Below are positions 687 through 46,807 of a DNA stretch of 46,809 bases, piece by piece. The stretch is from assembly GCA_051881895.1 (NCBI GenBank), contig JBJEQT010000098.1, forward strand, positions 1 through 46,809, read 5' to 3'. The translations under genes were made by a program, and so were the position numbers. Below the pieces are notes generated by a model. The model saw only the letters and a program-made list of their open reading frames with translations. It had not been told where the DNA came from and ran no database searches. Each line of letters starts with the position of its first letter. Positions within the stretch are counted from its first letter, which is position 1. Source of the stretch: Oscillospiraceae bacterium (GTDB lineage Bacteria; Bacillota; Clostridia; Oscillospirales; Ruminococcaceae).

Positions 687-1650
687 CCTCCTGCTGTTCC
701 GGCTGTCGGGGTGCCAAAATCCAGGCAGGATCCACCCGCAGGCCGTTTATGCGTATTTCCCAATGCAGATGAGGGCCTGTTGACCATCCGGTAGAGCCGA
801 CATATCCGATCAGCTCCCCCTGGCGCAGCACATCCCCTTGTTTGGCGACAATAGAATCGCAGTGTGCATAAAAAGTCGCCAGCCCGCCGCTGTGGCTGAC
901 GAGCGCATAATTTCCGTAGATATCCGACCAGCCGACTTCGCTCACCACGCCGGGCCACGCAGCGCCGACGCGCGTTCCTTGTGCAGCCGCCAGGTCCAGG
1001 CCCGTATGAAAATCCAATTCGCCGGTAATCGGGTGAATCCGGTAACCAAAAGCACTGGTAACCATCCCTCTTTTCAGCGGAAGCAGCGGTTTGGCGCTGA
1101 CTGCCACCGGTGAAAGCAGGCACCCCTCCGGCGCCGGATAACGAGCTGTGCCGATTTCTTGGCCGGTACTGGAAAGGCTGACTGGCAAATACCCTCCCAT
1201 ACCTGCCGGAGCAGCAGAATCGGTCTGCTTTTCATCCGTTTCGCGGCTGTACCGCTCAATATATCGGTACAGCTCTTCCAGCTTTTCTGGCGACGCGCCT
1301 GCATGCTGCGCCTTTTCCTCTCCCGGCGTCAATGTGGCCGCGTCTGAGGTGGTGGCAGGCACTTGCCCACCCGGCTCTTGTTTTTTGAAAATCCCGGACA
1401 GAACATTTTCCACCTGTTTCGTCTGGTCAGCCGCGTTGATCTGGGCAAGCAGAATCTGCTTACCATCCGCAAACCACTGCGCGTCCAAAAGCCATCCGCC
1501 CAACAGGCACAATAAAAAAACAGCGCAGATAAAGATTTGCAGCGGCAGCACCCCTCCCGCCGCTTTCGGTGCGGATTCCCGCTGGCCATAAGGAACCGGC
1601 CTGTAAGGCATCCCGCCCCTTCGCCCACTGTAGTCCCGACGATCTGCCAT
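667..1650 (-). CDS. M23 family peptidoglycan metalloendopeptidase with N-terminal TM anchor
   Basis: 327-aa ORF. LytM-type catalytic motifs are intact (HTGLDLAA and GSTGWSTGPHLHWEIR). There is a hydrophobic segment LPLQIFICAVFLLCLLGGWLL. RBS GGAGG lies 8 nt before the ATG at 1650. Confidence 0.85.
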   Translation of the reverse strand: MADRRDYSGRRGGMPYRPVPYGQRESAPKAAGGVLPLQIFICAVFLLCLLGGWLLDAQWFADGKQILLAQINAADQTKQVENVLSGIFKKQEPGGQVPATTSDAATLTPGEEKAQHAGASPEKLEELYRYIERYSRETDEKQTDSAAPAGMGGYLPVSLSSTGQEIGTARYPAPEGCLLSPVAVSAKPLLPLKRGMVTSAFGYRIHPITGELDFHTGLDLAAAQGTRVGAAWPGVVSEVGWSDIYGNYALVSHSGGLATFYAHCDSIVAKQGDVLRQGELIGYVGSTGWSTGPHLHWEIRINGLRVDPAWILAPRQPEQQEDGFAKA

Positions 1651-5562: not shown

Positions 5563-5614
5563 ATGTACCTCCCCCGCGGCTGGCCGCCGCTTTCTCTCCT
5601 TATCCTCTTCCTTT

Positions 5615-7123
5615 TTACAAAACGTCGGCCAGGGCATTTTTCTCTTTTTCTACCTGGCTTTTTACTGACGAATCCGGGTTGAACAAGGACGCATACCGGA
5701 ACAAAGCGAATCCGCCGTATTTTTTATAGTCTCTGGCGGACTGTACCTGACGGGCCAAAATGGCCGAATCACTGATCCATTCATTTTTGCCGTTTCCGGC
5801 CCAGGTATCCGTCAGACCGATCTTATACGGTGCCAGGCCGATATAAAGCGATATGCCGGAAACCTTGATTTTATTATTCCACAACTCCACCGTTTCGGTA
5901 AACGGATGGGTAGAGTTGTTAAATCCAAAGTAAATCTGCGGGCAGATGTAATCCACATATCCTTGATTGGAAAGCCATTTGTCCACATCGATGTACTGGC
6001 TGTTGTAATTGTTGGAAGGATTGCCCTGAGGGCTCACGCCAAAGCGCACCGAAGAATCCGTCGCCTTGATGACAGAATAAACATCCCGAATCAGGATATT
6101 CACGTTTTCCCTCCGCCAATCTCCCAAAGACAGGGAACCTCCGCCGCTTTGGTATTCCCGGTAGGCGGTGCTGTCAAAACTGTCATTGGGCGACGGGTAG
6201 AAATAATCGTCAAAATGGATGCCGTCCAGATTGTAATTCTCCACCAGCTCCCGCACGCCGTTTACGATCAGCTCCCGCACCGCGGGACGCGCCGGGTTGT
6301 AATAAATGCCGCCTCCATAGCGGATCACATAATCCTCTTCTTCATCCTCCCATTGGGAAGCGATGTTGGAAGAACAAAGCGCGTTGTTGTTCCCGGAGGC
6401 TCGAATACGGTAAGGATTGACCCAGGCCTCAATTTCCAGGCCCAGGGCATGCGCCTCTTCGATCATCACCTGCAGCGGATCATAGCCGGGATTTTTCCCT
6501 TCCGTTCCGGTGCACAGGTAAGACCACGGGAAATACTCTGATTCATAAAGCGCATCTGCGAAAGGACGCACCTGCACGATAGCCACATTGCAGCCCAAAT
6601 CGGACACGTTTTGAAAAGCCGCTTTGATATTCTGCCGGAATGCCGCTTGACTTTTTCCTTTGAGCATGCCCGACAAATCCAGATAAGAAAACCAAACCGC
6701 CCGGTACTCATCACCGGCATAGCCGCCCGAACTGCCGCCCGGCTGAGAAGAAGAACTGCCCGATGATGCAGAACTCACCTGTGAGCTGCTGGAAGCGCCG
6801 GAGCTGCTCGGGGCCATGGAACCGCTTTGAGAAGACGAACTGCCCTGGCTGGAAGAACTTCCACCGGACTGTATCGGTGCGGAAGAAGACGACGCCGCTG
6901 AGGAGGATGCCTGCGCCTGCGAGGAAAGTACAATCGGGTCGGAAGATGACGGCACCTCGCCGCTGCCCTGCGAACTCTCCGGTTTTTCCGGCTGGGAAAG
7001 CACGGTGCCCTCTCCCAACAGCATCTGCGGTTCAGGAGCCGAATCAACCGTTTGCCCGGAACAGCCAGCCAAGGCCGCCAGCAGGATAACGGCGCTCATC
7101 AAAATACAGATGATTCGTTTCAT
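5615..7123 (-). CDS. GHL10-family (YngK/DigH-like) putative glycoside hydrolase lipoprotein with long Ser-rich linker
   Basis: 502-aa ORF. Lipoprotein signal MKRIICILMSAVILLAALAGCSG. About 80 aa of low-complexity Ser-rich sequence follow. Then comes a domain paralogous to the N-terminal domain of the neighbouring large protein (YRAVWFSYLDL..., WVNPYR..., DGIHFDDYFYP). RBS GGGAGGA lies 6 nt before the ATG. Confidence 0.8.
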   Translation of the reverse strand: MKRIICILMSAVILLAALAGCSGQTVDSAPEPQMLLGEGTVLSQPEKPESSQGSGEVPSSSDPIVLSSQAQASSSAASSSSAPIQSGGSSSSQGSSSSQSGSMAPSSSGASSSSQVSSASSGSSSSQPGGSSGGYAGDEYRAVWFSYLDLSGMLKGKSQAAFRQNIKAAFQNVSDLGCNVAIVQVRPFADALYESEYFPWSYLCTGTEGKNPGYDPLQVMIEEAHALGLEIEAWVNPYRIRASGNNNALCSSNIASQWEDEEEDYVIRYGGGIYYNPARPAVRELIVNGVRELVENYNLDGIHFDDYFYPSPNDSFDSTAYREYQSGGGSLSLGDWRRENVNILIRDVYSVIKATDSSVRFGVSPQGNPSNNYNSQYIDVDKWLSNQGYVDYICPQIYFGFNNSTHPFTETVELWNNKIKVSGISLYIGLAPYKIGLTDTWAGNGKNEWISDSAILARQVQSARDYKKYGGFALFRYASLFNPDSSVKSQVEKEKNALADVL

Positions 7124-24671: not shown

Positions 24672-27089
24672 TTATTGGTCCGCCGCTTTGCCAAAAACCT
24701 GTTCTGCGTACCGGACCGTTTCCATCGCGTTTTTCGCGTAGTAATCCGCTCCGATCATATCCGCATACTCCTGGGTCAGCACCGCTCCGCCGACCACCAC
24801 TTTGCAGTCCGGTTTTTCGGCGCGAAGCAGCCGCGCTGTTTGTTCCATTGCGGGGACGGTGGTCGTCATCAAGGCAGACAGACCCACCAAGCGGATATCG
24901 TTCTGCAAGACGGCTTCCAGAATTTTTTCCGGCGGCACATCCCGTCCCAGGTCGATCACCCGATATCCATAGTTTTCCATCAGAACCTTGACGATATTTT
25001 TGCCGATGTCGTGGATATCCCCTTTCACCGTGGCAAGGATCACCGCCGGTCCTTGTTCCGACGCCGCAGGCATTGTCTTACGCACTTCGTCAAACGCGGC
25101 TTTTGCCGCCTCGGCGCTCATGAGAAGCTGCGGCAGGAAAACCGTTTTCTTCTCAAATCCCTGACCCACAATATCCAAAGCAGGAATGATCTGCTCGTTG
25201 ATGACCGCCAGGCCATCGGCATGCGCAAGCGCCTCTTGGGCGGCGCGGGAAGCTTCTTCCCGCAGTCCGCGCTCAATCGCGGCCTGCAGCCCGTCCTCTT
25301 TTTCAGGCAGGTCGCTTTTCGCCGGGGCCGATGAGCTGACCTGGGACACAAGATCCTGCGCGAAACCGATGTACCTCTGGCAATTGGGATCCTGGCCCGA
25401 CAGCGCCAGATAACAATGATACGCTTTTTGCATCTCCATCGAAAAAGGATTCATAATCGCCGCGTCCAGCCCCCGGGCCAACGCCATCGTGAAGAAAGAA
25501 GCCGTGACAAATTCCCGGTTCGGCAGGCCAAACGAAACGTTGGAAACGCCCAGCGAACAGCAAACGCCCAATTCCTTTTTTAACAGGCTGACCGTTTCCA
25601 GCGTGACGTTTGCCGCCTGGTTATCCGACGAGACCGTCATCGCCAGCGGATCGAAAATCAGATCTTCCGGACCGATGCCGTATTCCGCCGCCCGTGTTAA
25701 AATCCGCCGTGCAATTTCCAGCCGTTCCAAAGCCGTATTGGGGATACCGGATTCATCCAGCGTAAGGCACACAACCAGGCCGCCGTATTTTTGCACCAGC
25801 GGAAAGACCGCTTCCATGCTTTCCTCTTTGCCGTTTACCGAATTGAGCATCGGCTTTCCGTTATAGATGCGCATCGCCCGTTCCATCGCTTTCGGGTCGG
25901 ACGTATCCAACTGGAGCGGCAAACTGGTCACTGATTGCAGTTCCTTTACGCACTCGCTGAGCATCGCCGGTTCGTCGATCTCCGGCAAACCTACATTGAC
26001 ATCCAGCACCTCGGCGCCGTGTTCCTGCTGCGCAATCCCCTCTTTGAGAATATAGCCGATATCGTGCGCCCGCAGCGCCTCTTTGAATTTTTTCTTTCCG
26101 GTCGGGTTAATGCGTTCCCCAATCAGCACCGGCCCTTTTCCAAATTCCACCACCTGCGCATAGGAACTGATCACCGACCGTTTTTTTCTGGTCAGCGCAA
26201 CAGGGGTCACGCCGGCAGTGGCGGCGACCATTTTTTGGATGTACGCCGGCGTAGTGCCGCAGCATCCGCCGATTATCCGTGCGCCCTGTTCTGCCACCTG
26301 CTTCATAACCGCGGCAAAATGATCTTCATCCACATCGTAAACCGTCTTTCCATTCCGGCTGCGGGGCATGCCGGCATTGGGTTTGACCAGCAGCGGCAGG
26401 CTGGTGCTGGCGGACAGGCGCGGCAGAAGCTGCAGCATCTGATCCGGCCCCAGCGAACAGTTTATGCCCATCACATCGACCCGGAGGCCTTCCAGCAGGG
26501 CCGCCATCGCCTCCGGCGAAGCGCCGGTCATCAGCTTGGCGTTTTCATCATAAATATTGCTGACAAAAACAGGCAGATCGGCGTTTTCTTTTGCCGCCAA
26601 TACCGCCGCTTTTGTCTCATAAGCGTCATTCATCGTCTCGATCAGAATAAAATCGACGCCCTCTTTTGTACCGGCACGCACGACCTCGGCAAACAACTCT
26701 ACCGCCGTTTCAAACGGCAAGTCCCCCAGCGGCTCCAACATTCTCCCCAAAGGGCCGATATCCAACCCTACAAACCGGTTCATTTGTCCGCCCTGCGCCG
26801 TATCGCGCGCCGTTTTGGCGCAGCGAACAGCCGCCCTGACCACTTCATCCAAAACGGGAAGCCCGTTTTTTTCGCCAAATTTCAGGCTGTTCGCGCCAAA
26901 GGTATTGGTGAGGACCGCATGGCTCCCCGCCTCAAAATAAGTCCGCGCCAGCTCGGTGATCTTTTGCGGATGGGTAAGATTCCAAAGTTCCGGCAGTTCA
27001 CCCGGGACAAGGCCCATTGCCTGTAAGGATGTGCCGGTTCCGCCATCCAGATAAAACAGCCCGCTTTTTACACATTCCATCACATTCAC
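24672..27089 (-). CDS. metH: Cobalamin-dependent methionine synthase core (Hcy-binding, pterin-binding and B12-binding modules; no activation domain)
   Basis: Hcy domain with zinc cysteines (INCSLGP, IIGGCCGTTPAYI). A pterin-binding barrel. A B12-binding domain with DxHxxG (GDIHDIGKN). The protein ends right after the Rossmann B12 module. I prefer the GTG start at 27089, 9 nt after AGGAGG; ATG 27080 is the alternative. Confidence 0.9.
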   Translation of the reverse strand: MNVMECVKSGLFYLDGGTGTSLQAMGLVPGELPELWNLTHPQKITELARTYFEAGSHAVLTNTFGANSLKFGEKNGLPVLDEVVRAAVRCAKTARDTAQGGQMNRFVGLDIGPLGRMLEPLGDLPFETAVELFAEVVRAGTKEGVDFILIETMNDAYETKAAVLAAKENADLPVFVSNIYDENAKLMTGASPEAMAALLEGLRVDVMGINCSLGPDQMLQLLPRLSASTSLPLLVKPNAGMPRSRNGKTVYDVDEDHFAAVMKQVAEQGARIIGGCCGTTPAYIQKMVAATAGVTPVALTRKKRSVISSYAQVVEFGKGPVLIGERINPTGKKKFKEALRAHDIGYILKEGIAQQEHGAEVLDVNVGLPEIDEPAMLSECVKELQSVTSLPLQLDTSDPKAMERAMRIYNGKPMLNSVNGKEESMEAVFPLVQKYGGLVVCLTLDESGIPNTALERLEIARRILTRAAEYGIGPEDLIFDPLAMTVSSDNQAANVTLETVSLLKKELGVCCSLGVSNVSFGLPNREFVTASFFTMALARGLDAAIMNPFSMEMQKAYHCYLALSGQDPNCQRYIGFAQDLVSQVSSSAPAKSDLPEKEDGLQAAIERGLREEASRAAQEALAHADGLAVINEQIIPALDIVGQGFEKKTVFLPQLLMSAEAAKAAFDEVRKTMPAASEQGPAVILATVKGDIHDIGKNIVKVLMENYGYRVIDLGRDVPPEKILEAVLQNDIRLVGLSALMTTTVPAMEQTARLLRAEKPDCKVVVGGAVLTQEYADMIGADYYAKNAMETVRYAEQVFGKAADQ

Positions 27090-27102
27090 AGCAATCGACC
27101 TC

Positions 27103-27771
27103 CTATAATCGAAAAGCGCAGTCTTTTTTTGAACACGCCGAACAGTCATGAAACCGCATGGTACAACCGGTATGCCCCATCCCCACAATGGCCGAAACCG
27201 ATTTCTGGGGGATCATCAAAAGCGCATCGGACAAAACAATTCCGGCTTTCCGCTTACTGTCCAGCACTTCCAAAAGCTTTTTCTGAAACGCCAGCGGCAA
27301 ATCGCCATAGCCTGGGCTGAATCGTGGACGGAAGCGCAGATCGGGGTATTTTTCCTCCCATTCACTGCACAGCTGGTCGCAGAACGCCTCTATCGCCGCT
27401 GAGCCAATGGCGTCGAGCACCAGCGCCCTGGCGGGTGAAGTCACCGCCGCGCGGCGGCGCTGCAGATCAATCTGCGCGCCCAAAGTAGCCGCAAACAGGA
27501 TCGCTTTTTGGCACCCCTCCAGGTTTCGGGCCAGGCTGGCGCTTTCCACCTGCATGGCGCCAAAATCTATCACCTGATTCTCTGTAAAGACCGGCAGTTC
27601 CAGATAACACGCCTGGCAGCGAACCGCCAAGGAAAATTCGGGCAGGCACGCATCTATCAGCGCAGCCACCGCCGGATCTTCTTCTGCTCTTCCCATCCCC
27701 AGATAGCGTAAAATATTTTTCCGCGCAACGGGGGGAAGCGCCGCCGAAACGGAAATGACCGGGGCGGTCAT
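27103..27771 (-). CDS. Stand-alone methionine synthase reactivation (AdoMet-binding activation) domain protein
   Basis: 222 aa. It resembles the C-terminal activation module of MetH (RFRPRFSPGYGDLPL corresponds to the RxxPGY AdoMet-site motif). There is an extra Cys-rich tail CTMRFHDCSACSKKDCAF. The start overlaps the metF stop (ATGA). Confidence 0.7.
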   Translation of the reverse strand: MTAPVISVSAALPPVARKNILRYLGMGRAEEDPAVAALIDACLPEFSLAVRCQACYLELPVFTENQVIDFGAMQVESASLARNLEGCQKAILFAATLGAQIDLQRRRAAVTSPARALVLDAIGSAAIEAFCDQLCSEWEEKYPDLRFRPRFSPGYGDLPLAFQKKLLEVLDSKRKAGIVLSDALLMIPQKSVSAIVGMGHTGCTMRFHDCSACSKKDCAFRL

Positions 27772-28634
27772 TTTAAAATCTCCGAGAGATTGCTTTGAAC
27801 CTGCGCCGCTACCGACGCGTTATTCATCGAGTAAACATGGATCGCCGGTACATCGTTGGCCAGAAGGTCAATGATCTGCTCCGAGGCGTAGATAATCCCC
27901 GCCTGTTTCATTGCGGCCGGATTGCTGCCAAAACGGTCCAAAAGATACCGGAAACGCTGCGGCAGCGCTGTCCCCGAAAGTTCCACAATCCGCTTGATCT
28001 GCTTGGCATTTGTAACCGGCATAATACCTGCTACCACGGGAACGGTAATCCCCGCTTCCCGGACTTTATAAAGGAAATTATAATAAATATTATTGTCAAA
28101 GAACATTTGGGTGGTCAAAAATTCGCATCCGGCATCCACCTTTTCTTTCAGATGCGCGATGTCCTCCGTCTGATTTTTGGAGTCCGGATGGCTTTCCGGA
28201 TAACAAGCGCCGCCAATACAGAATCCACCGTAGCTTTTGATCTCCCGTACCAGTTCGCTCGCGTAATGGTAATACCAATTTTGGGCGGCAGGCGCATTGG
28301 GCGCGATATCGCCTCGCAGCGCCAGCACATTTTCGATGCCGGCGGCGCGCATGGCGGCCAGCTGCTTTTGCACCCCCTCATGCGAAGAGCTGATGCAGCT
28401 CAGATGCGCCAGCGTGGGGACATGGTATTTCTCCTGCAGGTTGGAAGAAATAGAGACGGTATAATCACTGGTCCCTCCTCCTGCGCCGTATGTCACGCTG
28501 ATAAAGTCCGGTGAAAGAGCCGCGATGTTTTCCGTTGCCGTTTGAATGCTCTGGTAATTGTCGCTGGTTTTCGGCGGGAAAACCTCAAAAGACAAACAGG
28601 GTTTCTCGGCCCGGATCAAATCGATTACTTTCAT
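27768..28634 (-). CDS. metF: 5,10-methylenetetrahydrofolate reductase
   Basis: 288 aa. N-terminal LSFEVFPPKT, then ISVTYGAGG and LALRGD motifs typical of MTHFR. Confidence 0.9.
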   Translation of the reverse strand: MKVIDLIRAEKPCLSFEVFPPKTSDNYQSIQTATENIAALSPDFISVTYGAGGGTSDYTVSISSNLQEKYHVPTLAHLSCISSSHEGVQKQLAAMRAAGIENVLALRGDIAPNAPAAQNWYYHYASELVREIKSYGGFCIGGACYPESHPDSKNQTEDIAHLKEKVDAGCEFLTTQMFFDNNIYYNFLYKVREAGITVPVVAGIMPVTNAKQIKRIVELSGTALPQRFRYLLDRFGSNPAAMKQAGIIYASEQIIDLLANDVPAIHVYSMNNASVAAQVQSNLSEILK

Positions 28635-28699
28635 GAAACATCATCCTTATCATTCAATTCAAAAAGATACAGCCTGCCGGCCGCAATCCAATGTTTTGT

Positions 28700-29860
28700 T
28701 TACCAACTGGGGACATAAGCTTTTACACCGCGCAGGCTGTTTACCGCTTTTGCCGTTGTTTCGACGATAAAATCGACCTGCTCTTCTGTGTTCTCCTCTC
28801 CAAAGGAAAGACGCAGCGCGCTTTTGGCCTGATCCGGCGTTCGGCCGATCGCCAGCAAAACATGGCTGGGTTCCAGCGAGCCCGACATGCAGGCAGAACC
28901 GGAAGAAGCGCAGATGCCAGCTTGATCCAGCAAAAAAAGAAGCGCTTCCGCCTCTACTCCTTCAAAGCAGACATTTACATTTCCGGGCAGCCGGCAAACC
29001 GGGTCCCCATTTAATATAGAATAGGGGATATTTCGCAGTCCGTCAATCGTTTTATCCCGCAAAGATGTCATTTTTTTCATATTTTCTTCCAGGTGCTCGC
29101 AGGCAAAATCGAAAGCCGCCGCCATCGAAACAACGCCCGGGACATTCTCCGTTCCGGCCCGCAGCCCTCTTTCCTGTCCGCCTCCGGTGATCATCGGTTC
29201 CAATTGGATCCCCTTTTGCACATACAGCGCTCCCACGCCTTTCGGGCCGTGAAATTTATGAGCCGAAAGGGACAGCATCCCGATTTGCTGGTCTTTCACG
29301 CAAATCGGCAAATGGCCCGCCGCTTGTACGGCGTCGGTGTGGAACAAAACCCCTTTCTCGCGGCATATTCTCCCGATTTCCGAAATGGGCTGGATGGTGC
29401 CGATCTCGTGGTTGGCGTACATGACAGATACCAGGCAGGTATCCGGGCGAATGGCTTCTTCCACCTGCCGGGCCGAAATGATTCCGTTTTCCGGAACCGG
29501 CAGCAGCGTGACGGAAAATCCTTTGGTCCGCAGCTTGTCCAGGGTGCGAAGAATCGCAGGGTGCTCAAAGGCGGTGGAAATCATATGCTTTTTCCCAATT
29601 TTCTCCCCCATCGCCGCCGCTGAAAAAACGGCCAGGTTATCCGCTTCGCTGCCGCCTGAAGTAAACAGGATCTCCCGCGGCTCGCATCCCAGGTTTTTTG
29701 CCATCTTCGCCCTGGCCTGTGCCAGCGCTTTCGCAGCGTCCCGCCCGGCGGCGTGCTGACTGGAAGGGTTTCCGTAAAAGCTGTCCAGATACGGCCCCAT
29801 CGCTTCCATCGCCGCCTTGTTCATCCGGGTGGTAGCCGCGTTATCCGCATACACAAACAT
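28700..29860 (-). CDS. Cysteine desulfurase (NifS/IscS class V aminotransferase)
   Basis: 386 aa. MFVYADNAATT, PLP-lysine motif SLSAHKFHGPKG, and the catalytic Cys loop SSGSACMSG. Confidence 0.9.
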   Translation of the reverse strand: MFVYADNAATTRMNKAAMEAMGPYLDSFYGNPSSQHAAGRDAAKALAQARAKMAKNLGCEPREILFTSGGSEADNLAVFSAAAMGEKIGKKHMISTAFEHPAILRTLDKLRTKGFSVTLLPVPENGIISARQVEEAIRPDTCLVSVMYANHEIGTIQPISEIGRICREKGVLFHTDAVQAAGHLPICVKDQQIGMLSLSAHKFHGPKGVGALYVQKGIQLEPMITGGGQERGLRAGTENVPGVVSMAAAFDFACEHLEENMKKMTSLRDKTIDGLRNIPYSILNGDPVCRLPGNVNVCFEGVEAEALLFLLDQAGICASSGSACMSGSLEPSHVLLAIGRTPDQAKSALRLSFGEENTEEQVDFIVETTAKAVNSLRGVKAYVPSW

Positions 29861-29882
29861 GCTCTTCTCCTTTTTCTTTCGC

Positions 29883-30782
29883 CTAGATTTCCCAATACCA
29901 CGGTTCTTCCTGGTTTTTACCCTGAACGGCTAGTTCCCGGTTTGGCACCATGACCTTCGTGTTCGCGGGAACCGACTCCGTGACAAAAGCGCTGCCGCCG
30001 ATGATGCTGTTTTCCCCAATGACGGTATTTCCGCCCAAAACAGACGCGTTGGCATAAACCGTCACATGATCCTTGACCGTCGGATGCCGTTTTACACCGG
30101 AAAGCTGCTGTCCTTTTCGGGTAGATAAAGCGCCCAGCGTCACCCCTTGGTACAGTTTAACATGGTCGCCGATTTCGGTCGTTTCACCAATGACGATTCC
30201 TGTGCCATGATCTATGGAAAAATACGATCCGATTTGCGCGCCGGCATGGATATCAATCCCCGTGCGGCTATGGGCGTATTCGGTCATAATGCGGGGAATC
30301 AGCGGCACCTTTTTGCAATACAGTTCATGGGCAACGCGGTAAACAAATATGGCAAACAGCCCCGGATAGGACAAAATGACTTCTGCTTTGCTCTGCGCGG
30401 CCGGATCCCCTTCAAAGATGGCCTGCACATCCATTTTCAGCTGCCGCTGTACGTCGGGCAGGCGGCTGAAAAATGCTTGGCATATCTGCTGCGTTTCCCG
30501 CCGGATCTCCTGTTCAGAAGCTGCCCCGGCGCGAAAGGTCAGCGCCGCGTACAGCTGCCGGTTCAGCTCATCTTTTATTTTCCGAAGCTTTTCCGCGGCA
30601 AAAGAAAGGTTCTGCCCTTCTTCCGGACAACCGCCGAAAAATCCGGGAAACAACATCCCTCTTAATTCCCGGATCATCCAAATGACCTTTTCCCGATCAG
30701 GGAAATGGCCCGGCAACTCCTTTTCCTGTTCAAAAAGGTCTGCCGCAATCTGCTCCAAATCATTTTCCGTCTGTTTGTGCAT
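29883..30782 (-). CDS. cysE: Serine O-acetyltransferase
   Basis: Left-handed beta-helix hexapeptide repeats (GAQIGSYFSIDHGTGIVIGETTEIGDHVKLYQGVTLG). I prefer ATG 30782 because GAGGAGGAG lies immediately upstream. The track start at 30800 has no RBS. Confidence 0.85.
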   Translation of the reverse strand: MHKQTENDLEQIAADLFEQEKELPGHFPDREKVIWMIRELRGMLFPGFFGGCPEEGQNLSFAAEKLRKIKDELNRQLYAALTFRAGAASEQEIRRETQQICQAFFSRLPDVQRQLKMDVQAIFEGDPAAQSKAEVILSYPGLFAIFVYRVAHELYCKKVPLIPRIMTEYAHSRTGIDIHAGAQIGSYFSIDHGTGIVIGETTEIGDHVKLYQGVTLGALSTRKGQQLSGVKRHPTVKDHVTVYANASVLGGNTVIGENSIIGGSAFVTESVPANTKVMVPNRELAVQGKNQEEPWYWEI

Positions 30783-30816
30783 ATTCTCCTCCTCGTCCAT
30801 TCTGCTTCAAGCCGTG

Positions 30817-31902
30817 CTACTGCGCCCGTTCAATGGTGCCTCCGCCGAGGACGGTGTCCCCGTCATACAATACAACCGACTGGCCCGGCGTAATCGCGCG
30901 CTGCGGCTGGTCAAAACGCACATGCAGGCGTCCGTCGTCCGACTGCCAGGCTTCGGCCGGCTGCTCCTGCTGGCGATAGCGGATCTTCGCACAGACCCGG
31001 ATGGCCTTATCCAAGCGCTCCCCCGAAATCAAATTGACCTCTTTCGCCGTCAGATAACTGCTGTAAAGCGATGTTTCCTCTCCTAACACCACCGTATTGG
31101 ACTGCGGGCAGATTCCGCAGACATACAGGGGCTTTCCAACGCTGAGCCCCAGCCCTTTTTTCTGTCCGATGGTGTAGCGCCCGATTCCCCTGTGCTGTCC
31201 CAGCACCGTTCCATCCGGCCGTACAAAATTTCCCGGTTCCATTGTTTTTCCGGTGTATCGTTCCAAAAAAGAGCCATAGTCCCCATCCGGGACAAAACAG
31301 ATATCCTGGCTTTCCCTTTTGGCCGCATTGTCAAGGCCGTTTTCCCTCGCGATTCTGCGCACCTCGCTTTTTTGCAGGCACCCCAAAGGAAAACGGGTAT
31401 GGGCCAGCTGTTCCTGGGTCATGGCGTACAGAACATAGCTTTGATCTTTGGCGGGATCCATTCCCTTTTTCAAAAGCCATTTGCCGGAAGTTTCCTCGCG
31501 TTCGATTCGGGCATAATGGCCTGTCACGACGACATCCATCTGCATCTGGCGCATCCGGTGGAACAATCTGTCGAATTTGATATAGCGGTTGCAGTCGATG
31601 CAGGGATTCGGCGTAAAACCCTGCTGATAGCTTTGGACAAAACGGGCAATGACCGTTTTTCTGAAATCATCGGAAAAACCGAAAACATAATGGGGGATTC
31701 CCAGCTGGAAGCAGACGTTTCGCGCATCCTCCACATCTTCCAAAGAACAGCAGGTCCGCTGTCGGCTTTTACCGATATCCTCATTTTCAAACAACTTCAT
31801 GGTCGCGCCGACACAGGTAAAGCCCTGTTTCTGCATCAGCAGCGCCGCTACAGAACTGTCAACGCCGCCGCTCATTGCGATAAGCGCCTTTTGATTTGCC
31901 AT
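30817..31902 (-). CDS. mnmA: tRNA 2-thiouridine(34) synthase MnmA
   Basis: PP-loop IAMSGGVDSSVAA and catalytic cysteines (NPCIDCN, DICF). ATG 31902 is preceded by GAAAGGGG. Confidence 0.9.
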   Translation of the reverse strand: MANQKALIAMSGGVDSSVAALLMQKQGFTCVGATMKLFENEDIGKSRQRTCCSLEDVEDARNVCFQLGIPHYVFGFSDDFRKTVIARFVQSYQQGFTPNPCIDCNRYIKFDRLFHRMRQMQMDVVVTGHYARIEREETSGKWLLKKGMDPAKDQSYVLYAMTQEQLAHTRFPLGCLQKSEVRRIARENGLDNAAKRESQDICFVPDGDYGSFLERYTGKTMEPGNFVRPDGTVLGQHRGIGRYTIGQKKGLGLSVGKPLYVCGICPQSNTVVLGEETSLYSSYLTAKEVNLISGERLDKAIRVCAKIRYRQQEQPAEAWQSDDGRLHVRFDQPQRAITPGQSVVLYDGDTVLGGGTIERAQ

Positions 31903-31982
31903 CTGTACCCCTTTCCCGCCCGCAGGCATGCTAAATGAAAAAGGCCCCCTCTCACCGCGTGCTCGGGAGCCTTTCCGATATT

Positions 31983-32912
31983 TTAATCTTCAAACAAGGG
32001 TGTGGATAAATAACGATCGCCGGTATCAGGCAGCAGAACGACAATTGCCTTTCCCCTGTTTTCCGGGCGTTTGGCCAATTCTGTCGCGGCCCACACCGCT
32101 GCGCCGGAAGAGATCCCGGTCAATACGCCGTCGGTTCGGGCAATTTCTCTTCCGGTGGCAAAAGCCGCTTCATTGTCCACCGGTATGATTTCATCATAAA
32201 TTTGGGTATTCAGCGTATCCGGCACAAAGCCCGCACCGATTCCCTGAATTTTATGCGCACCGGCGATTCCTTTGGAAAGTACCGGTGAATCCGCCGGCTC
32301 TACCGCCACCACTTTGACTGCGGGATTTTGGGATTTCAAATACTCTCCTACACCGGTCAGGGTCCCGCCGGTTCCGACGCCGGCCACGAAAATGTCGACC
32401 TTGCCCTGCGTGTCCCGCCAGATTTCCGGACCCGTCGTCTGCCGGTGTGCCTGCGGATTGGCGGGATTTTTAAACTGTCCCGGGATGAAACTGCCCGGCG
32501 TCTGACGCGCCAGTTCCTCCGCTTTTTCGATGGCGCCTTTCATTCCTTTGGCGCCCTCGGTCAGCACAATTTCGGCACCGTAAGCCTTCAGCAGGATGCG
32601 GCGTTCCACGCTCATCGTCTCCGGCATCGTCAAAATGACGCGGTAGCCCTTGGCGGCGGCGATTGCTGCCAGGCCAATCCCCGTATTGCCGCTGGTCGGT
32701 TCGATGATGACAGAATCCGGGCGAAGGGCGCCGTCGGATTCCGCTTTTTCAATCATCGCTTTTGCAATACGGTCTTTTACGCTTCCGGCTGGATTCAAAA
32801 ATTCCAGTTTGGCGTAAATTTTCGCTTCCAGCTTTTCTTTCTGCTCATAGCCGGTCAATTCCAGCAGCGGAGTATTTCCCACAAGTTCGGTGATTTTTTG
32901 ATAGATTGCCAT
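31983..32912 (-). CDS. cysK: Cysteine synthase A (O-acetylserine sulfhydrylase)
   Basis: 309 aa. PLP-lysine motif [11 protein letters not shown], then [10 protein letters not shown] and [10 protein letters not shown]. Confidence 0.95.
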
Positions 32913-33037
32913 GATAAGTTGCTCCTTTCCAATTTTCCTATCCTATTCATTTCTCTGCGAAAAGAGAACATCGACATCGTCTTCTAATAGGAGGATTCCA
33001 TGGAAAGAGCCGCTTTACAATAAAAACTGTCATACGC

Positions 33038-34348
33038 TTACTTTTGCACAGACGCTTCGAACGCCTGGTCCAGATCGTAAATGATATCGTTTACATGTTC
33101 CGTACCGATCGAAAGACGGATCGTATTCGGTTTGATTCCCTGATCCAGCAGTTCTTCGGGGCTGAGCTGGGAATGGGTCGTTGTCGCAGGATGGATGACC
33201 AGGCTTTTTACATCCGCAACGTTGGCCAACAAGGAAAAGACCTGCAGGCTGTCGATAAACCGGTGCGCTTCTTCCTGGCCTCCTTTGATCTCGAACGTAA
33301 AGATCGAACCGCCGCCGTTGGGGAAATATTTTTCATACAGCTCATGATCCGGATGATCCGGCAAGGACGGATGATTAACATGTTCCACCTGCGGATGATT
33401 TGCCAGATATTCCACTACTTTCTTGGTATTCTCCGCATGACGGTCCAGACGCAGAGAAAGCGTTTCTGTGCCCTGCAGCAGCAAAAATGCCGCGAAAGGA
33501 GAAATAGTGGCACCGGTATCCCGCAAAAGAATCGCCCGCACATAGGTGACAAAAGCGGCAGGGCCAACAGCATCTACAAAGGAGATTCCGTGATAGCTTG
33601 GGTTCGCGTCCGCGATCGGGGCATATTTGCCGCTGGCTTTCCAGTCAAACTTGCCGGAATCGACGATCACGCCGCCCAACGTTGTGCCGTGGCCGCCGAT
33701 AAATTTTGTGGCCGAATGGACCACAATATCCGCGCCATGTTCAATCGGCCGGACCCAATACGGTGTGCCAAAAGTATTGTCGATAACCAGCGGCAGACCG
33801 TGTTTATGTGCAATCGCGGCAATCGCGTCGATATCCGGGATATCGCTGTTGGGGTTGCCCAGCGTCTCGAGATAAACGGCCTTTGTATTGGGCTGGATGG
33901 CGTTTTCCAGCTCCTTTAGGTCATGGGCGTTGACAAAAGTCGTGCTGATGCCAAATTGCGGGAAAGTGTGAGCCAGCAAGTTAAACGTGCCGCCGTAGAT
34001 GGTTTTTTGCGCGACAATATGGTCGCCGTTTTGGGCCAGCGCCTGAATGGTATAGCTGATTGCGGCAGCACCGGAGGCGACTGCCAGCGCTGCAACGCCG
34101 CCCTCCAGGGCCGCAATGCGTTTTTCAAAAGCTTCCTGGGTAGAATTGGTCAGACGGCCGTAAATATTGCCGGCGTCGGACAATCCAAAGCGAGCCGCCG
34201 CATGGGCGGAGTTATGAAAAACATAGGATGTGGTGGCGTAAATCGGTACGGCGCGGGAGTCGGTGGCAGGGTCTGCTTGCTCCTGCCCTACATGAAGCTG
34301 CAACGTCTCAAACTGATATTGATGTTTTCCATTCAAAAAATCTGCCAT
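33038..34348 (-). CDS. metY: O-acetylhomoserine sulfhydrylase / aminocarboxypropyltransferase
   Basis: 436 aa in the Cys/Met-metabolism PLP family, with the lysine motif VHSATKFIGGHGT. RBS GAAGGAAAAG. Confidence 0.9.
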   Translation of the reverse strand: MADFLNGKHQYQFETLQLHVGQEQADPATDSRAVPIYATTSYVFHNSAHAAARFGLSDAGNIYGRLTNSTQEAFEKRIAALEGGVAALAVASGAAAISYTIQALAQNGDHIVAQKTIYGGTFNLLAHTFPQFGISTTFVNAHDLKELENAIQPNTKAVYLETLGNPNSDIPDIDAIAAIAHKHGLPLVIDNTFGTPYWVRPIEHGADIVVHSATKFIGGHGTTLGGVIVDSGKFDWKASGKYAPIADANPSYHGISFVDAVGPAAFVTYVRAILLRDTGATISPFAAFLLLQGTETLSLRLDRHAENTKKVVEYLANHPQVEHVNHPSLPDHPDHELYEKYFPNGGGSIFTFEIKGGQEEAHRFIDSLQVFSLLANVADVKSLVIHPATTTHSQLSPEELLDQGIKPNTIRLSIGTEHVNDIIYDLDQAFEASVQK

Positions 34349-34550: not shown

Positions 34551-34676
34551 TCAAAAACGTGTTTTCGAATCAGAAAAGAAGCTCTGAAATCCATCCAAGG
34601 CGCAGGAAATCGTGTACATGTTGCTGCACATGCACATACACATACACATTTTGCGGCCCGTCTGCAAAAAATACAT
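34551..34676 (-). CDS. Candidate attenuation leader peptide, 41 codons, Met/Cys-rich (MYFLQTGRKMCMCMCMCSNMYTISCALDGFQSFFSDSKTRF)
   Basis: Not in the ORF track because it is shorter than 60 aa. AAGGAG (34689..34684) is followed by 7 nt and ATG 34676, with stop TGA at 34553..34551. Codons 10-17 are ATG TGT ATG TGT ATG TGC ATG TGC. A consensus promoter lies upstream, and a terminator and the Met/Cys biosynthesis genes lie downstream. Confidence 0.6.
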   Translation of the reverse strand: MYFLQTGRKMCMCMCMCSNMYTISCALDGFQSFFSDSKTRF

Positions 34677-34723
34677 TGCGCTTCTCCTTTCTGATTTTCT
34701 TGTTTTCCTATTGGTTTACCAGG

Positions 34724-34752
34724 ATTATAGCATCCACCTATTCTTTTGTCAA
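34724..34752 (-). promoter_or_regulatory. Consensus sigma-A promoter of the metY leader/operon
   Basis: Minus strand TTGACA (34752..34747), 17-nt spacer, TGcTATAAT (extended -10; TATAAT at 34729..34724). Confidence 0.75.
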
Positions 34753-34770
34753 CAAGATTTTACTTTTTTC

Positions 34771-34799
34771 TTTACATAGATTTCCGATTGGTTTAATAT
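34771..34799 (+). promoter_or_regulatory. Probable promoter of the divergent Rrf2 regulator gene
   Basis: TTTACA (34771..34776), 17-nt spacer, TAATAT (34794..34799). It lies about 32 nt upstream of the ATG, back-to-back with the metY promoter, with the two -35 boxes 18 nt apart. Confidence 0.5.
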
Positions 34800-34831
34800 G
34801 TATAAAAGAACGTTCACGAAAGGGAAAGATT

Positions 34832-35242
34832 ATGAAAATATCCACCAAAGGGCGATACGCCCTGCGCATGATGATTGATTTGGCACAACAGCAAAAGGAG
34901 TCTGTCTTATCCTACATTCCTTTAAAGGATATCGCCTTTCGGCAGGGAATCGAAATCAAATATTTGGAGCAAATTGTGGCGCTTTTGAAAAAAGACGGGC
35001 TGATTCAAGGTGTGCGCGGCAGCAGCGGCGGATACCGTCTGACGAGGGAACCAAAGGAATACACCGTTCGGGAAATCCTTGAGGTAACGGAAGGCCGTCT
35101 CGCTCCCGTTGCCTGTTTGGATACCCCTGTCAATCTTTGTCCCCGCAAAGAACATTGCCCCACGCTGTCTTTTTGGGAAGACTTCGCTTCCTGCATCACT
35201 GATTTTTTGGAAAAATGGACGCTGCAGGACTTTTTGTCCTGA
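34832..35242 (+). CDS. Rrf2 family transcriptional regulator (IscR/CymR-like) with three-Cys cluster motif
   Basis: MKISTKGRYALRMMIDLA... winged HTH, then SSGGYRL. Cys ligand pattern is C-x7-C-x5-C (ACLDTPVNLCPRKEHC). RBS AAAGGGAAAG. The track ORF start at 34559 is a spurious upstream extension. Confidence 0.9.
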   Translation: MKISTKGRYALRMMIDLAQQQKESVLSYIPLKDIAFRQGIEIKYLEQIVALLKKDGLIQGVRGSSGGYRLTREPKEYTVREILEVTEGRLAPVACLDTPVNLCPRKEHCPTLSFWEDFASCITDFLEKWTLQDFLS

Positions 35243-43170: not shown

Positions 43171-43352
43171 AATCGTTCCTCCTCTTTTCACATTTTGCGC
43201 GGCATTTTTGCCGCAGACCTCCGTTTTGTCTTGACTCCACCGTCAGGTCCGTCGGTCCAGGTCCTTTCGGGCGCTGCGATGGTTTCGAAAAATAGTATAT
43301 GTGCCCTGCCATCGTTTATCCTCCCGGGCAGAACTCTTTTACAAAATTCGTT

Positions 43353-43379
43353 TTGCCGCGCAAAAAATTTTGTTATAAT
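43353..43379 (+). promoter_or_regulatory. Possible extended -10 promoter for the 149-aa membrane protein gene
   Basis: TGtTATAAT (43371..43379) with a weak -35 TTGCCG. It lies about 70 nt upstream of ATG 43449. Confidence 0.4.
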
Positions 43380-43448
43380 ATGGCTGAAAGAAAAATTCCA
43401 TTTTCTGCACCGGATTTGCCCATTGCAGAAAATCCAAGGAGGAGCGCC

Positions 43449-43898
43449 ATGTCTGTAAAACCAATTTCCGATTCCCTACCGGTATCCTGTGAAGGGGAAG
43501 AAATCGTCCTGTTAAAACAAGTTGCCCAAAACACCGAAATCGCCGCCCAATCTGCGCAAAAGCAGCTGCTGTTTTCAAAAATCCGACTTGGGCTCACAGG
43601 ATTTTTAACCGCGCTGGTGCTTTTCGCTTTTCTGTTGGGCGGGCCAAAGCTATACCGTTCTTTACAGAATGCCGACCGGACATTCAGCAGTCTGGAAACG
43701 GTTTCCTCGCAGCTGGTGCAGGCGGATATTCCCGCTCTGCTCGCCGATGTGGATCAGTTGGCTGTCAAGGGCGAGGAAAGCCTGGAAGCAATCCAAAAAG
43801 CATCGGAAGTTCTGGAGAAAATCGATATGGACCGGCTCAACCAGGCAATCGCCGATTTGCAGAAAGCCGTATCTCCTCTTGCCAAGTTGTTTGGTTAA
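43449..43898 (+). CDS. Hypothetical membrane-anchored coiled-coil protein
   Basis: AAGGAGGAG lies 4 nt before ATG 43449 (MSVKPISDSL...). There is one TM helix (LGLTGFLTALVLFAFLLGG) and a helical, Leu/Glu/Gln-rich C-terminal half. Family is uncertain (DUF948-like at best). The track start at 43299 is a spurious extension. Confidence 0.6.
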   Translation: MSVKPISDSLPVSCEGEEIVLLKQVAQNTEIAAQSAQKQLLFSKIRLGLTGFLTALVLFAFLLGGPKLYRSLQNADRTFSSLETVSSQLVQADIPALLADVDQLAVKGEESLEAIQKASEVLEKIDMDRLNQAIADLQKAVSPLAKLFG

Positions 43899-44010: not shown

Positions 44011-44051
44011 TTCGACAAATTTCGCCTGCTTACTCGTACAAAATTGTCGAA
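44011..44051. promoter_or_regulatory. Pair of inverted perfect Spo0A-box heptamers (TGTCGAA) upstream of the Spo0A-like gene
   Basis: TTCGACA at 44011..44017 (TGTCGAA on the minus strand) and TGTCGAA at 44045..44051. A near-match CATCGAA is at 44065..44071. They lie 175-235 nt upstream of ATG 44245. Confidence 0.45.
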
Positions 44052-44244
44052 ACGCGTCGTTCCGCATCGAAAAGGCCCGGTATCGGAACCGTTCAAGCCC
44101 TCTTACGGGACGCCTTTCCCCTGAAATATCGTTTGCGGTTTTGCTTGCTTTTTTATCTTTCGCCATATAAGATAGGACGTGGCAAAAAAAGAAGAAGGAA
44201 GCGGGATTGGCATTCATGCTATTTACATTTTTGGAGGTAGTATA

Positions 44245-45024
44245 ATGCCGCAAGCAAAAAAGGTCATTCTTTCAGACAACGATCAAATATTTTTGGACTC
44301 CTGCCAGAATGCGTTTCGTCTGCTCGGGATACAAACCATCACCTTGCCGAAACACGGGCGCATTCTTTGGGACGCCATCGAAAAAGAGCGTCCTGATCTT
44401 GTGATCTGCAATATCTTCATGGCGTATTGTGACGCTGTCCACATCATGGAGCATCTGGACCGGAGCGAAACGCCTGCACCGGACTTTATCGCCCTGTGCT
44501 CTTCGGACAACGAGTGTTTGTTCGACCGATTTTTATCCGCCGGCGGAGCTTATGTGTTCATTAAGCCCCTGGATGTGATGGTTCTGGCGGAACGCGTTTG
44601 CCGCCATCTGGAGCTGTCCGAGCGGGAAGGCCATATATGCCGGGTCGATTTTGCAAATCCGGCCTCCCGCGCCTCATTGGACGCGGTCAGGCTGTTAAAG
44701 GAAATCGGGATACCCGCTCATCTGGCCGGCTATCATTACATCAAAATCGGCCTGGAATTACTGCAGGAAGATCCCATGCGCTTTTCTTACGGCGCCAAGG
44801 GCTTATACCAGGCCATTGCGCAAAGAACGCACAGCAGCTACCAGCGGGTGGAGCGCAACATCCGAACAGCGGTGGAGACGGCGTTTAACCGTGGAGATTT
44901 TGCTTTTTATGAAAAATTCTTCGGCGCTTCCATCAGCCGGAAAACTGGAAAGCCCAGCAACTCTCAGTTTTTCGCTACGCTGCACGAATATCTCACCTCG
45001 CCCGAAAAAGTCTCCATTGGCTAG
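44245..45024 (+). CDS. Spo0A-like transcription factor with degenerate (Asn56) receiver domain
   Basis: GGAGGT lies 6 nt before ATG 44245. The C-terminal half matches the Spo0A DNA-binding domain (EIGIPAHLAGYHYIKIGLELL..., SSYQRVERNIRTAVETAF, GKPSNSQFFATLHEYL). The N-terminal half is CheY-like, but the acceptor-site sequence is PDLVICNIFM, with AAT at 44410..44412. Confidence 0.85.
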   Translation: MPQAKKVILSDNDQIFLDSCQNAFRLLGIQTITLPKHGRILWDAIEKERPDLVICNIFMAYCDAVHIMEHLDRSETPAPDFIALCSSDNECLFDRFLSAGGAYVFIKPLDVMVLAERVCRHLELSEREGHICRVDFANPASRASLDAVRLLKEIGIPAHLAGYHYIKIGLELLQEDPMRFSYGAKGLYQAIAQRTHSSYQRVERNIRTAVETAFNRGDFAFYEKFFGASISRKTGKPSNSQFFATLHEYLTSPEKVSIG

Positions 45025-46042: not shown

Positions 46043-46807
46043 TTATTTTTCTGCTTTCTTTCTGGCAGGCTGTTTCAGGATTACCGTAAATTCAATGGAG
46101 CGGGGATCCGGACAGCTGGCCCGAATGGAGCCTCCGTGTGCCTGTACAATCCCTCGTGCGATGGAAAGGCCAATGCCAAAACCGCCGGCTTGTTTGGAAC
46201 GGGACTTGTCTATTCGATAGAAACGGTCAAAAAGCTTGTCCGTCTGCGCAATGTCCATTTCCGGGCAGGTGTTGAAAGCGCGCAGCAGGATGCCTTTTTT
46301 GGTTTTCTCCAGGGTCAGGCGAATGTGTCCGTTTTCATCCGAATACTTCACTGCGTTATCCATCAGGATGGAAACCAGCTGCCGGATGGCGTACTCATCG
46401 CCGCAATAGGTCAGCTCCTGGGTGATCTCCAATTCCAGGGTGCGGTTGTTGGCCGCCGCAAAGTCCCGGAAGGATTCCGCCGTCTCCTGTACCGCCTCGC
46501 TGATGCTGAATTGCGTCAACATCAACGGCGGCTTCTCTTCATCCAGGCGGGAGAGGGTTACCAGCTGATTCACCAGCTCTTTCAAATGCTCCACCTGACT
46601 CTGGGCTTTGTCAATCCACTTCTGGGGGCCGACATCCATTTCCAGCACCTTCAGGCTGGTGGTGATCACCGTCAGAGGCGTTTTCAATTCATGGCTGGCA
46701 TCGGTAATGAACTGCTTTTGCTTCTCCACGCTCTGGGCTACTGGGGCCATGGCCTTGCGGGACAGTGCCAAAATCAAGATATATACCAGACCAATACTCG
46801 CGGCCAA
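46043..46807 (-). CDS. Sensor histidine kinase, C-terminal part (N-terminus lies beyond the window edge)
   Basis: H-box FITDASHELKTPLTVI, N-box MDNAVKYS, G-boxes GGFGIGLSIARGIVQAHGG. The ORF is open to the window end. Confidence 0.9.
   Translation of the reverse strand: MAASIGLVYILILALSRKAMAPVAQSVEKQKQFITDASHELKTPLTVITTSLKVLEMDVGPQKWIDKAQSQVEHLKELVNQLVTLSRLDEEKPPLMLTQFSISEAVQETAESFRDFAAANNRTLELEITQELTYCGDEYAIRQLVSILMDNAVKYSDENGHIRLTLEKTKKGILLRAFNTCPEMDIAQTDKLFDRFYRIDKSRSKQAGGFGIGLSIARGIVQAHGGSIRASCPDPRSIEFTVILKQPARKKAEK

Follow-up and report, generated by a model that had tools for sequence, protein, structure and literature searches.

A Spo0A-like protein with asparagine at the phospho-acceptor position, encoded downstream of conserved 0A boxes in uncultured Oscillospiraceae

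Introduction

Among developmental switches driven by aspartyl phosphorylation, Spo0A is the textbook case, and the entry of gut Firmicutes into sporulation affects their transmission and persistence. Here we describe a relative of this regulator that appears to have left aspartyl phosphorylation behind. Its gene lies at positions 44245..45024 (+ strand) of a 46,809-nt stretch of DNA from an Oscillospiraceae bacterium (assembly GCA_051881895.1, contig JBJEQT010000098.1, positions 1 to 46,809), which was analysed as a whole and is referred to below as the window. A previous inspection of the letters and open reading frames alone (the sequence-only reading) had proposed that the gene encodes a Spo0A paralogue with Asn in place of the phospho-acceptor Asp.

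Response regulators that lack the acceptor aspartate form an established class, the aspartate-less receiver (ALR) or pseudo-receiver regulators, in which Asn is the second most common substitution at 16% (PMC4395418). Within this class, RitR from Streptococcus pneumoniae (Asn53), which represents regulators that act without phosphorylation, resembles the protein described here in having an Asn acceptor, a degenerate acidic pocket, the Lys-Pro pair and a DNA-binding output; the output of RitR, however, is an OmpR-type winged helix, whereas that of the present protein is Spo0A_C (PMC4395418). CmrT from Clostridioides difficile (10.1101/690230) is likewise clostridial, has its acceptor Asp replaced by Glu and is thought to be constitutively active. 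It differs in belonging to another output family, in carrying a Glu, which can mimic phospho-Asp as Asn and Pro cannot, and in being encoded together with a kinase and a second regulator, while no kinase is conserved beside the Spo0A-like gene.

Additional Spo0A homologues that occur beside or instead of the master regulator have been reported from Clostridia, including Oscillospiraceae: Clo1313_0637 in C. thermocellum and three copies each in Anaerostipes hadrus and Faecalibacterium duncaniae (PMC4890492, 10.1101/2022.02.25.481979, PMC13020158). No function has been assigned to them, and we liken them to the present gene without a claim of orthology. The second copy of C. thermocellum, at 49% identity to Bacillus subtilis Spo0A, is far closer to the canonical protein than the one studied here, and the papers we found on these homologues do not mention loss of the acceptor Asp. 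A truncated Spo0A encoded by phages (PMC10294663) is likewise a Spo0A DNA-binding domain free of the phosphorelay, but it has no receiver, whereas the present protein keeps a strongly conserved, non-phosphorylatable receiver and a conserved chromosomal neighbourhood. In our full-text literature search, neither an Asp-less Spo0A nor an ALR joined to Spo0A_C was found described. Taken singly, ALR domains and Spo0A paralogues are already known; what is new is the fusion of an ALR receiver to a Spo0A_C output, together with a conserved 0A-box promoter.

Results

A protein with the architecture of Spo0A and no acceptor aspartate

The coding sequence specifies 259 amino acids plus a stop codon, and all features of the gene are given here on the + strand. 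Its ATG lies 7 nt 3' of a GGAGG motif (44233-44237), and the resulting MPQ start is kept across the orthologues, except in a sub-clade in which the first codon reads Leu. An in-frame GTG at 44179 was rejected as the start, since a 2-nt indel in the orthologous locus L013 breaks the frame there while the DNA is still conserved.

Two Pfam domains give the protein the receiver plus Spo0A_C architecture of canonical Spo0A. Response_reg (PF00072) matches residues 7-118 with 38.3 bits against a cutoff of 30.2, and Spo0A_C (PF08769) matches residues 149-250 with 98.4 bits (cutoff 25) and spans positions 3-104 of the 104-position profile. We place the receiver at residues 1-125 (44245..44619), an interdomain linker at residues 126-145 (44620..44679) and the DNA-binding effector domain at residues 146-252 (44680..45000). 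The effector domain also matches PDB entries 1lq1 and 1fc3 with E-values of ~1e-16 (phmmer). In an AlphaFold2 model of the protein (mean predicted local distance difference test score, pLDDT, 77.9) the receiver adopts a (βα)5 fold, onto which Foldseek superposed known receiver domains, including phosphorylated Spo0A-N (1qmp), with a template modelling (TM) score of ~0.8 and a root-mean-square deviation of 2.3-2.8 Å. Confidence was low in the linker (pLDDT <50 at residues 129-141). These results uphold the assignment of both halves in the sequence-only reading, which had called the N-terminal half CheY-like and the C-terminal half Spo0A-type on the strength of motifs that are indeed present.

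The codon AAT at 44410..44412 encodes Asn56, and every alignment places this residue at the phospho-acceptor position. In the phmmer alignment, PDLVICNIFMAYCD pairs with PDILLLDIIMPHLD of the Spo0A receiver 1dz3 (pdlvicNifmaycD versus pdilllDiimphlD). The same Asn56-Asp56 column was obtained with MAFFT, using five canonical Spo0As and a B. subtilis Spo0A sequence whose C-terminal half agrees with the 1lq1 alignment, and it recurs in a hidden Markov model (HMM) alignment of 168 family proteins. In the AlphaFold2 model, β3 comprises residues 52-56, with Asn56 as its last residue. Position 56 is thus the equivalent of Asp56 of Spo0A and holds no Asp, as had been read from the letters.

The phosphorylation pocket is altered at further positions as well: the second Mg-binding acid, the Thr and the aromatic switch residue are all replaced. 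Aligned in B. subtilis numbering, D10 corresponds to D11 of the present protein, D11 to N12, T86 to C85 and F105 to V104, while the Lys-Pro pair K108-P109 is kept as K107-P108 (44563..44568). The D11-N12-D13 codons (44275..44283) therefore form a degenerate version of the acidic pocket of Spo0A (D10-D11-N12), and this DND triplet is invariant across the family except for a DSD in one relative (P0011). The earlier description of an SDND pocket with a kept FIKP lysine was accurate. Both the phosphorylatable Asp56 and the Asp-Asp acidic pair of Spo0A are missing, and the protein combines a receiver fold with a conserved non-Asp acceptor, the two hallmarks of the ALR class. Compared with canonical Spo0A (P06534, TIGR02875, 1qmp/1dz3/1lq1), it shares the domain architecture, the receiver fold, the Lys-Pro pair and the motifs V-E-R-x-I-R, PAH-x-GY and KP(S/T)N. 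Canonical Spo0A differs in having Asp56, Asp11, Thr86 and Phe105, where the Spo0A-like family has Asn/Pro, Asn, Cys/Ser and Val/Ile, in carrying A215 and H218 in its recognition helix, in having spoIVB as a neighbour, and in its linker, which is much shorter in the Spo0A-like protein.

The aspartate-less receiver is maintained in nine species

Assemblies from two different Sequence Read Archive (SRA) runs, available through Logan (SRR30616837 and SRR30616845), matched the window at every position over 3225 and 1051 nt, AAT included, so that the A at 44410 is independently confirmed. A search of 5.8 billion proteins returned 20 relatives at 54-91% identity, and a scan of 185,579 species-representative genomes identified orthologues in nine species at 48-93% identity. 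All nine carriers are uncultured metagenome-assembled genomes (MAGs) of Oscillospiraceae/Ruminococcaceae, the closest being Ruminococcaceae bacterium UBA3818. Position 56 is Asn (AAT or AAC) in six species and Pro (CCC or CCG) in three; none of the nine has Asp, and the reading frame is intact in each. The substitution is consequently no strain-specific lesion, and the recent inactivating mutation or sequencing error that the sequence-only reading had kept in play is refuted by the identical SRA assemblies together with the Asn and Pro orthologues.

In a neighbour-joining tree the Pro clade nests inside the Asn-type clade, and the outermost family member, P0022, has Asn at position 56. A distant relative, P0023 (46% identity), which is sister to the orthologue at L019, carries Asp at the acceptor site, which it may have regained or may never have lost. 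Pairwise Nei-Gojobori estimates gave ratios of nonsynonymous to synonymous substitution rates (dN/dS) of 0.08-0.14 for the receiver, 0.04-0.16 for Spo0A_C and 0.3-0.97 for the fast-evolving linker. Since its dN/dS is this low, the aspartate-less receiver is being maintained rather than decaying. The alignments, the conservation of Asn or Pro and the purifying selection on the receiver jointly support the proposal that it cannot be activated by canonical aspartyl phosphorylation.

The family is a distinct branch of Spo0A

The protein scored 134.1 bits on the Spo0A equivalog model TIGR02875 and so stayed below the cutoff of 200. When a profile of 13 orthologues was searched against 1.84 billion representative proteins, P0022 and P0023 were the only near relatives found, and they score 121 and 119 bits on TIGR02875; the proteins ranked next are a large set that passes the model at 230-337 bits. 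Because of this gap, the sequences set the family apart as a distinct, divergent branch of Spo0A and not as a slightly damaged Spo0A. Identity to B. subtilis Spo0A is 27%, compared with 42-61% for canonical clostridial representatives. We infer that the gene is a paralogue, a status supported by analogy with published Clostridia in which two or three Spo0A homologues per genome are documented (10.1101/2022.02.25.481979, PMC4890492, PMC13020158).

Conserved and helically phased 0A boxes precede the gene

The strongest functional clue, which the sequence-only reading had not included, lies upstream of the gene: just as 0A boxes lie upstream of spo0A itself, the 346-nt intergenic region contains two exact 0A boxes (TGTCGAA). 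One is on the - strand at 44011..44017, 234 nt 5' of the ATG, at an offset that is conserved in L011, L012 and L015 and with one mismatch in L013. The other is on the + strand at 44045..44051, 200 nt 5' of the ATG, and is found at about -200 in L011, L012, L013 and L015 and at -218 in L018. Two degenerate direct boxes, CGTCGTT (44055-61) and CATCGAA (44065-71), can be read from the sequence on the + strand (44055..44071), phased exactly +10 and +20 bp after the second exact box; the same phasing occurs in L012 (TGTCGGA, TATCGAA) and L013 (CGTCGGA, TATCGAG). Exact heptamers are not enriched in the window as a whole (4 observed versus 5.2 expected from shuffles), yet two of the four fall within 41 bp (34 bp start to start) in this intergenic region, for which the shuffle mean predicts ~0.04.

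Four loci (L011, L012, L013 and L015) share the arrangement TTCGACA-N27-TGTCGAA at about -234/-200, followed by phased degenerate boxes; in L013 the first box carries one mismatch. In L018 the box pair lies at -251/-218, and L019, whose protein is 48% identical, has exact TTCGACA boxes at four places (-206, -186, -176 and -132). Every Asn-type orthologue, down to 48% identity, therefore has exact 0A boxes upstream, although the surrounding intergenic DNA has diverged. The conservation and helical phasing of these motifs argue that a Spo0A-type DNA-binding domain acts on the promoter; we cannot say whether the acting protein would be canonical Spo0A~P, the Spo0A-like protein or both.

The recognition helix V-E-R-N-I-R-T-A-V-E (residues 202-211, 44848..44877) is invariant in the family. 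It keeps the Glu-Arg-x-x-Arg motif, with E203, R204 and R207 aligned to E213, R214 and R217 of Spo0A, which we take to be the base-contacting residues in the 1LQ1 0A-box complex. Two helix positions are unlike canonical Spo0A (A215 to N and H218 to T). From the helix sequence, DNA specificity is probably 0A-like, but it could be shifted. The residue aligned with Ala257 of Spo0A, the site of spo0A9V and presumably required for activation of sigma-A promoters, is His or Tyr.

Between the boxes and the gene lies a putative sigma-A-type promoter, TTGCTT-N17-TAAGAT (44145..44173, +), which was inferred from conservation: the block TTGATT/TTGCTT ... ATAAGATAG is conserved in the upstream alignment of the Asn-type orthologues, and transcription would be predicted to start near 44180. 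A leader element, GGGATTGGCA (44203..44212, +), sits ~35 nt 5' of the start and shows almost no variation among the orthologues, whether Asn- or Pro-type. Rfam gave no match for it, and, judged by eye against consensus sequences, it does not fit a sigma-E/F/G/K/H or sigma-54 site. RNAalifold pairs the GGCA of GGGATTGGCA with the TGCC of the start region, but weakly (-4.8 kcal/mol) and without compensatory pairs. A change from GGCAT to GGCAA accompanies the change from ATG to TTG in two of the three Pro-type species, which is suggestive but not consistent.

The upstream region of the Pro-type orthologues differs from that of the Asn-type, and in L003 and L016 it contains a TGTTATAAT element ~290 nt upstream. 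This Pro56 sub-clade (L014, L016 and L017; also L003-L005) is the one whose first codon reads Leu (TTG in L016), a non-ATG start. The change of the acceptor and the rewiring of the promoter coincide here and may represent a single evolutionary event.

Loss of the acceptor aspartate recurs beyond the family

We also looked at the 123 full-length receiver plus Spo0A_C representatives nearest the family profile, a sample biased by the use of an Asp-less profile for the ranking. Outside the focal family, 31 of these 123 lack the acceptor Asp, with Glu in 16, Asn and Ser in five each, Gly in two, and Ala, Cys and Pro in one each. The E-R-x-x-R core of the recognition helix is kept in all 31. Nine of ten Asp-less representatives tested pass the TIGR02875 cutoff and would accordingly be annotated as genuine Spo0A. 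At the level of sequence, this shows that loss of the acceptor Asp is recurrent beyond the focal family. In addition, four proteins of 394-454 aa (P0024, P0025, P0026 and P0028) have no receiver and carry three or four Spo0A_C domains in tandem (Pfam, 311-399 bits over 3-4 stretches), an architecture that could occupy 0A-box arrays without phosphorylation or dimerisation.

Gene neighbourhood and the remainder of the window

Directly upstream, on the same strand, lies a 149-aa open reading frame (ORF; 43449..43898, +) with one predicted transmembrane segment and a coiled-coil-like tail. By tblastn it is found in the same place in all nine species, at 41-95% identity. It belongs to no Pfam or NCBIfam family, and its own family is as narrow as that of the Spo0A-like protein (11 clusters, all named 'hypothetical protein'). 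To judge from its position, this membrane protein may be a partner of the pseudo-receiver; synteny alone, however, is weak evidence, because the carrier genomes are closely related (their solute-binding protein is 75-95% identical). Further upstream is a mal/glycogen operon, whose synteny may simply reflect this close relatedness. A phosphoribosyltransferase gene follows downstream, where gene content varies between species. The gene is hence outside the usual spoIVB-spo0A context, as had been noted before.

Two candidate connections were rejected. A partial histidine kinase gene at 46043-46807 is not syntenic in the orthologous loci, which speaks against it as a partner, and the downstream phosphoribosyltransferase is likewise not syntenic in other species. 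Control of the adjacent mal/glycogen operon by the Spo0A-like protein is not indicated either, since the divergent region 43192-43448 holds no exact 0A boxes.

Pfam and NCBIfam searches of the ~38 ORFs in the window found no second Spo0A_C gene and no sporulation equivalog. The other genes are of housekeeping type (cell wall, MreB, RecD2, TrmD/RimM/Ffh, FeoB, and methionine and cysteine metabolism), together with GlgP-MalQ and a maltodextrin-type ABC transporter. At 99-1650 (-), a gene for an M23 (LytM-type) peptidase precedes a short one for an M50 site-2-protease-like protein (195 aa, partial M50 match), in an order that recalls spoIVFA-spoIVFB only loosely and without a match to a sporulation equivalog model. 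The region 1798-7123 (-) encodes a 1279-aa wall-associated protein with GHL10, Amidase_3 (CwlD-like, below cutoff) and three Big_2 domains, and a second GHL10 protein (502 aa) is encoded directly upstream of it. A large methionine and cysteine block occupies 24672-34348 (-), with MetH-like, MTHFR, cysteine desulfurase, MnmA, CysK-like and O-acetylhomoserine sulfhydrylase-like genes, and an Rrf2 regulator is encoded with it at 34559-35242. At gathering thresholds, Rfam yielded neither a riboswitch nor any other RNA family across the whole window.

Discussion

Taken together, we consider it somewhat better than an even chance that the Spo0A-like protein regulates through 0A boxes without phosphorylation, and that Spo0A~P, the protein itself, or both determine how much of it there is. 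It is probably a second-tier regulator rather than a broken gene. By analogy with RitR and CmrT, the protein would bind 0A-type boxes without phosphorylation, so that its activity would be governed mainly by its amount. The receiver might still take a non-phosphoryl input, be it from another protein, from a ligand or through the conserved cysteines C20, C55 and C62. A Spo0A-type protein would act on the 0A-box array to control synthesis: if this is Spo0A~P, the circuit would be a feed-forward one in which a passing phosphorelay signal is turned into a lasting, phosphatase-proof regulator, and if it is the protein itself, the array would serve autoregulation. The sequence-only reading had offered a phosphorylation-independent regulator, or a partner or antagonist of Spo0A, and as an interpretation this is supported by the same sequence evidence.

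Several observations weigh against this interpretation. The three Pro-type orthologues lack exact 0A boxes, which means that the family as a whole does not share box-dependent control. In the Asn-type arrangement some 95-130 bp separate the boxes from the putative -35 downstream of them, a long distance for direct activation, and a consensus promoter scan returned nothing on the + strand upstream of the gene, TTG(A/C)TT-N17-TAAGAT being below its threshold. The capacity to bind 0A boxes is deduced from three conserved residues, and the A215 to N and H218 to T changes could alter specificity. Given the Asp in P0023, the ancestral state of the acceptor is not certain. Finally, the proposed function is deduced from genomes that all come from uncultured organisms.

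An antagonist or decoy of canonical Spo0A would account for part of the same evidence, although we regard it as rather unlikely. Such a protein would occupy 0A boxes without activating, or its pseudo-receiver would heterodimerise with Spo0A or titrate kinases or phosphotransferases, and sporulation would be damped or delayed. The retained recognition-helix motif agrees with this, boxes in front of the gene would provide negative feedback, the strongly conserved receiver fits a role in protein-protein interaction, and His or Tyr replaces the residue that, as stated above, we assume to be needed for activation. The data do not separate repression or competition from activation, however, and the lack of the boxes in the Pro-type clade counts against an antagonist too.

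The gene could instead encode the only Spo0A of its organisms. It would then be a rapidly evolving orthologue, kept for another, autoregulated role after the lineage had lost the phosphorelay and perhaps also sporulation. We think this improbable. The window contains no second Spo0A_C gene or sporulation equivalog, each carrier MAG gave a single match in a scan with family-specific patterns, which would not reveal a canonical copy, and non-spore-formers that keep Spo0A are known (10.1101/2022.02.25.481979, PMC6136694). Against it stand the low identity to B. subtilis Spo0A, the TIGR02875 score of 134 bits when the nearest neighbours reach 230-337, the absence of spoIVB beside the gene, and the existence of multi-copy Spo0A genomes that include an Oscillospiraceae member, Faecalibacterium (10.1101/2022.02.25.481979, PMC13020158).

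There is very little room for a receiver that has stayed under phosphorylation control, whether because Asn56 is deamidated to Asp or because another residue, for instance the invariant Cys55 or Asp63, takes the phosphoryl group. CheY D57N can reportedly be phosphorylated on the preceding Ser56, and Lys107, Asp11 and Asp13 are retained in the present protein. In some receivers an acceptor Asn can revert chemically to Asp (PMC4395418). However, the Pro at this site in three orthologous species, with the same synteny and under equally strong constraint, argues strongly against such a mechanism. The replacement of the second metal-binding acid by Asn in the family (Ser in the DSD of P0011) and the lack of a conserved kinase or phosphotransferase gene nearby, the histidine kinase at 46043-46807 not being syntenic, also speak against it. 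Lastly, a sequencing error, a recent strain-specific lesion or a decaying pseudogene can be dismissed, for although AAT is one transition from GAT, the window is matched exactly by two independent SRA assemblies, all nine orthologous species have Asn or Pro by way of four codons, and the frame is intact in every species with a dN/dS of ~0.1.

On a broader and more tentative view, which we put forward as a possibility that we would not yet favour, phosphorylation-blind Spo0As would be a widespread and unrecognised class in Clostridia. The focal family might then sit directly downstream of Spo0A~P through its 0A-box array as a phosphatase-proof 'memory' or lock-in regulator, or be a surviving phosphorelay-free Spo0A in non-sporulating lineages, with the Pro-type members rewired away from 0A control. 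If this were true, the Spo0A regulons of many gut anaerobes would be driven in part by regulators that are hidden from the phosphorelay.

Sporulation potential is widely scored by the presence of 'spo0A'. Since many such proteins lack the acceptor Asp, Asp-less proteins named 'Spo0A' in metagenomes could mislead surveys of this trait. As for the regulator itself, a conserved, non-phosphorylatable Spo0A relative that retains the DNA-recognition motif and has 0A boxes in front of its own gene suggests that the Spo0A network of abundant uncultured gut Oscillospiraceae has a further layer, one that would be invisible to kinases and phosphatases.

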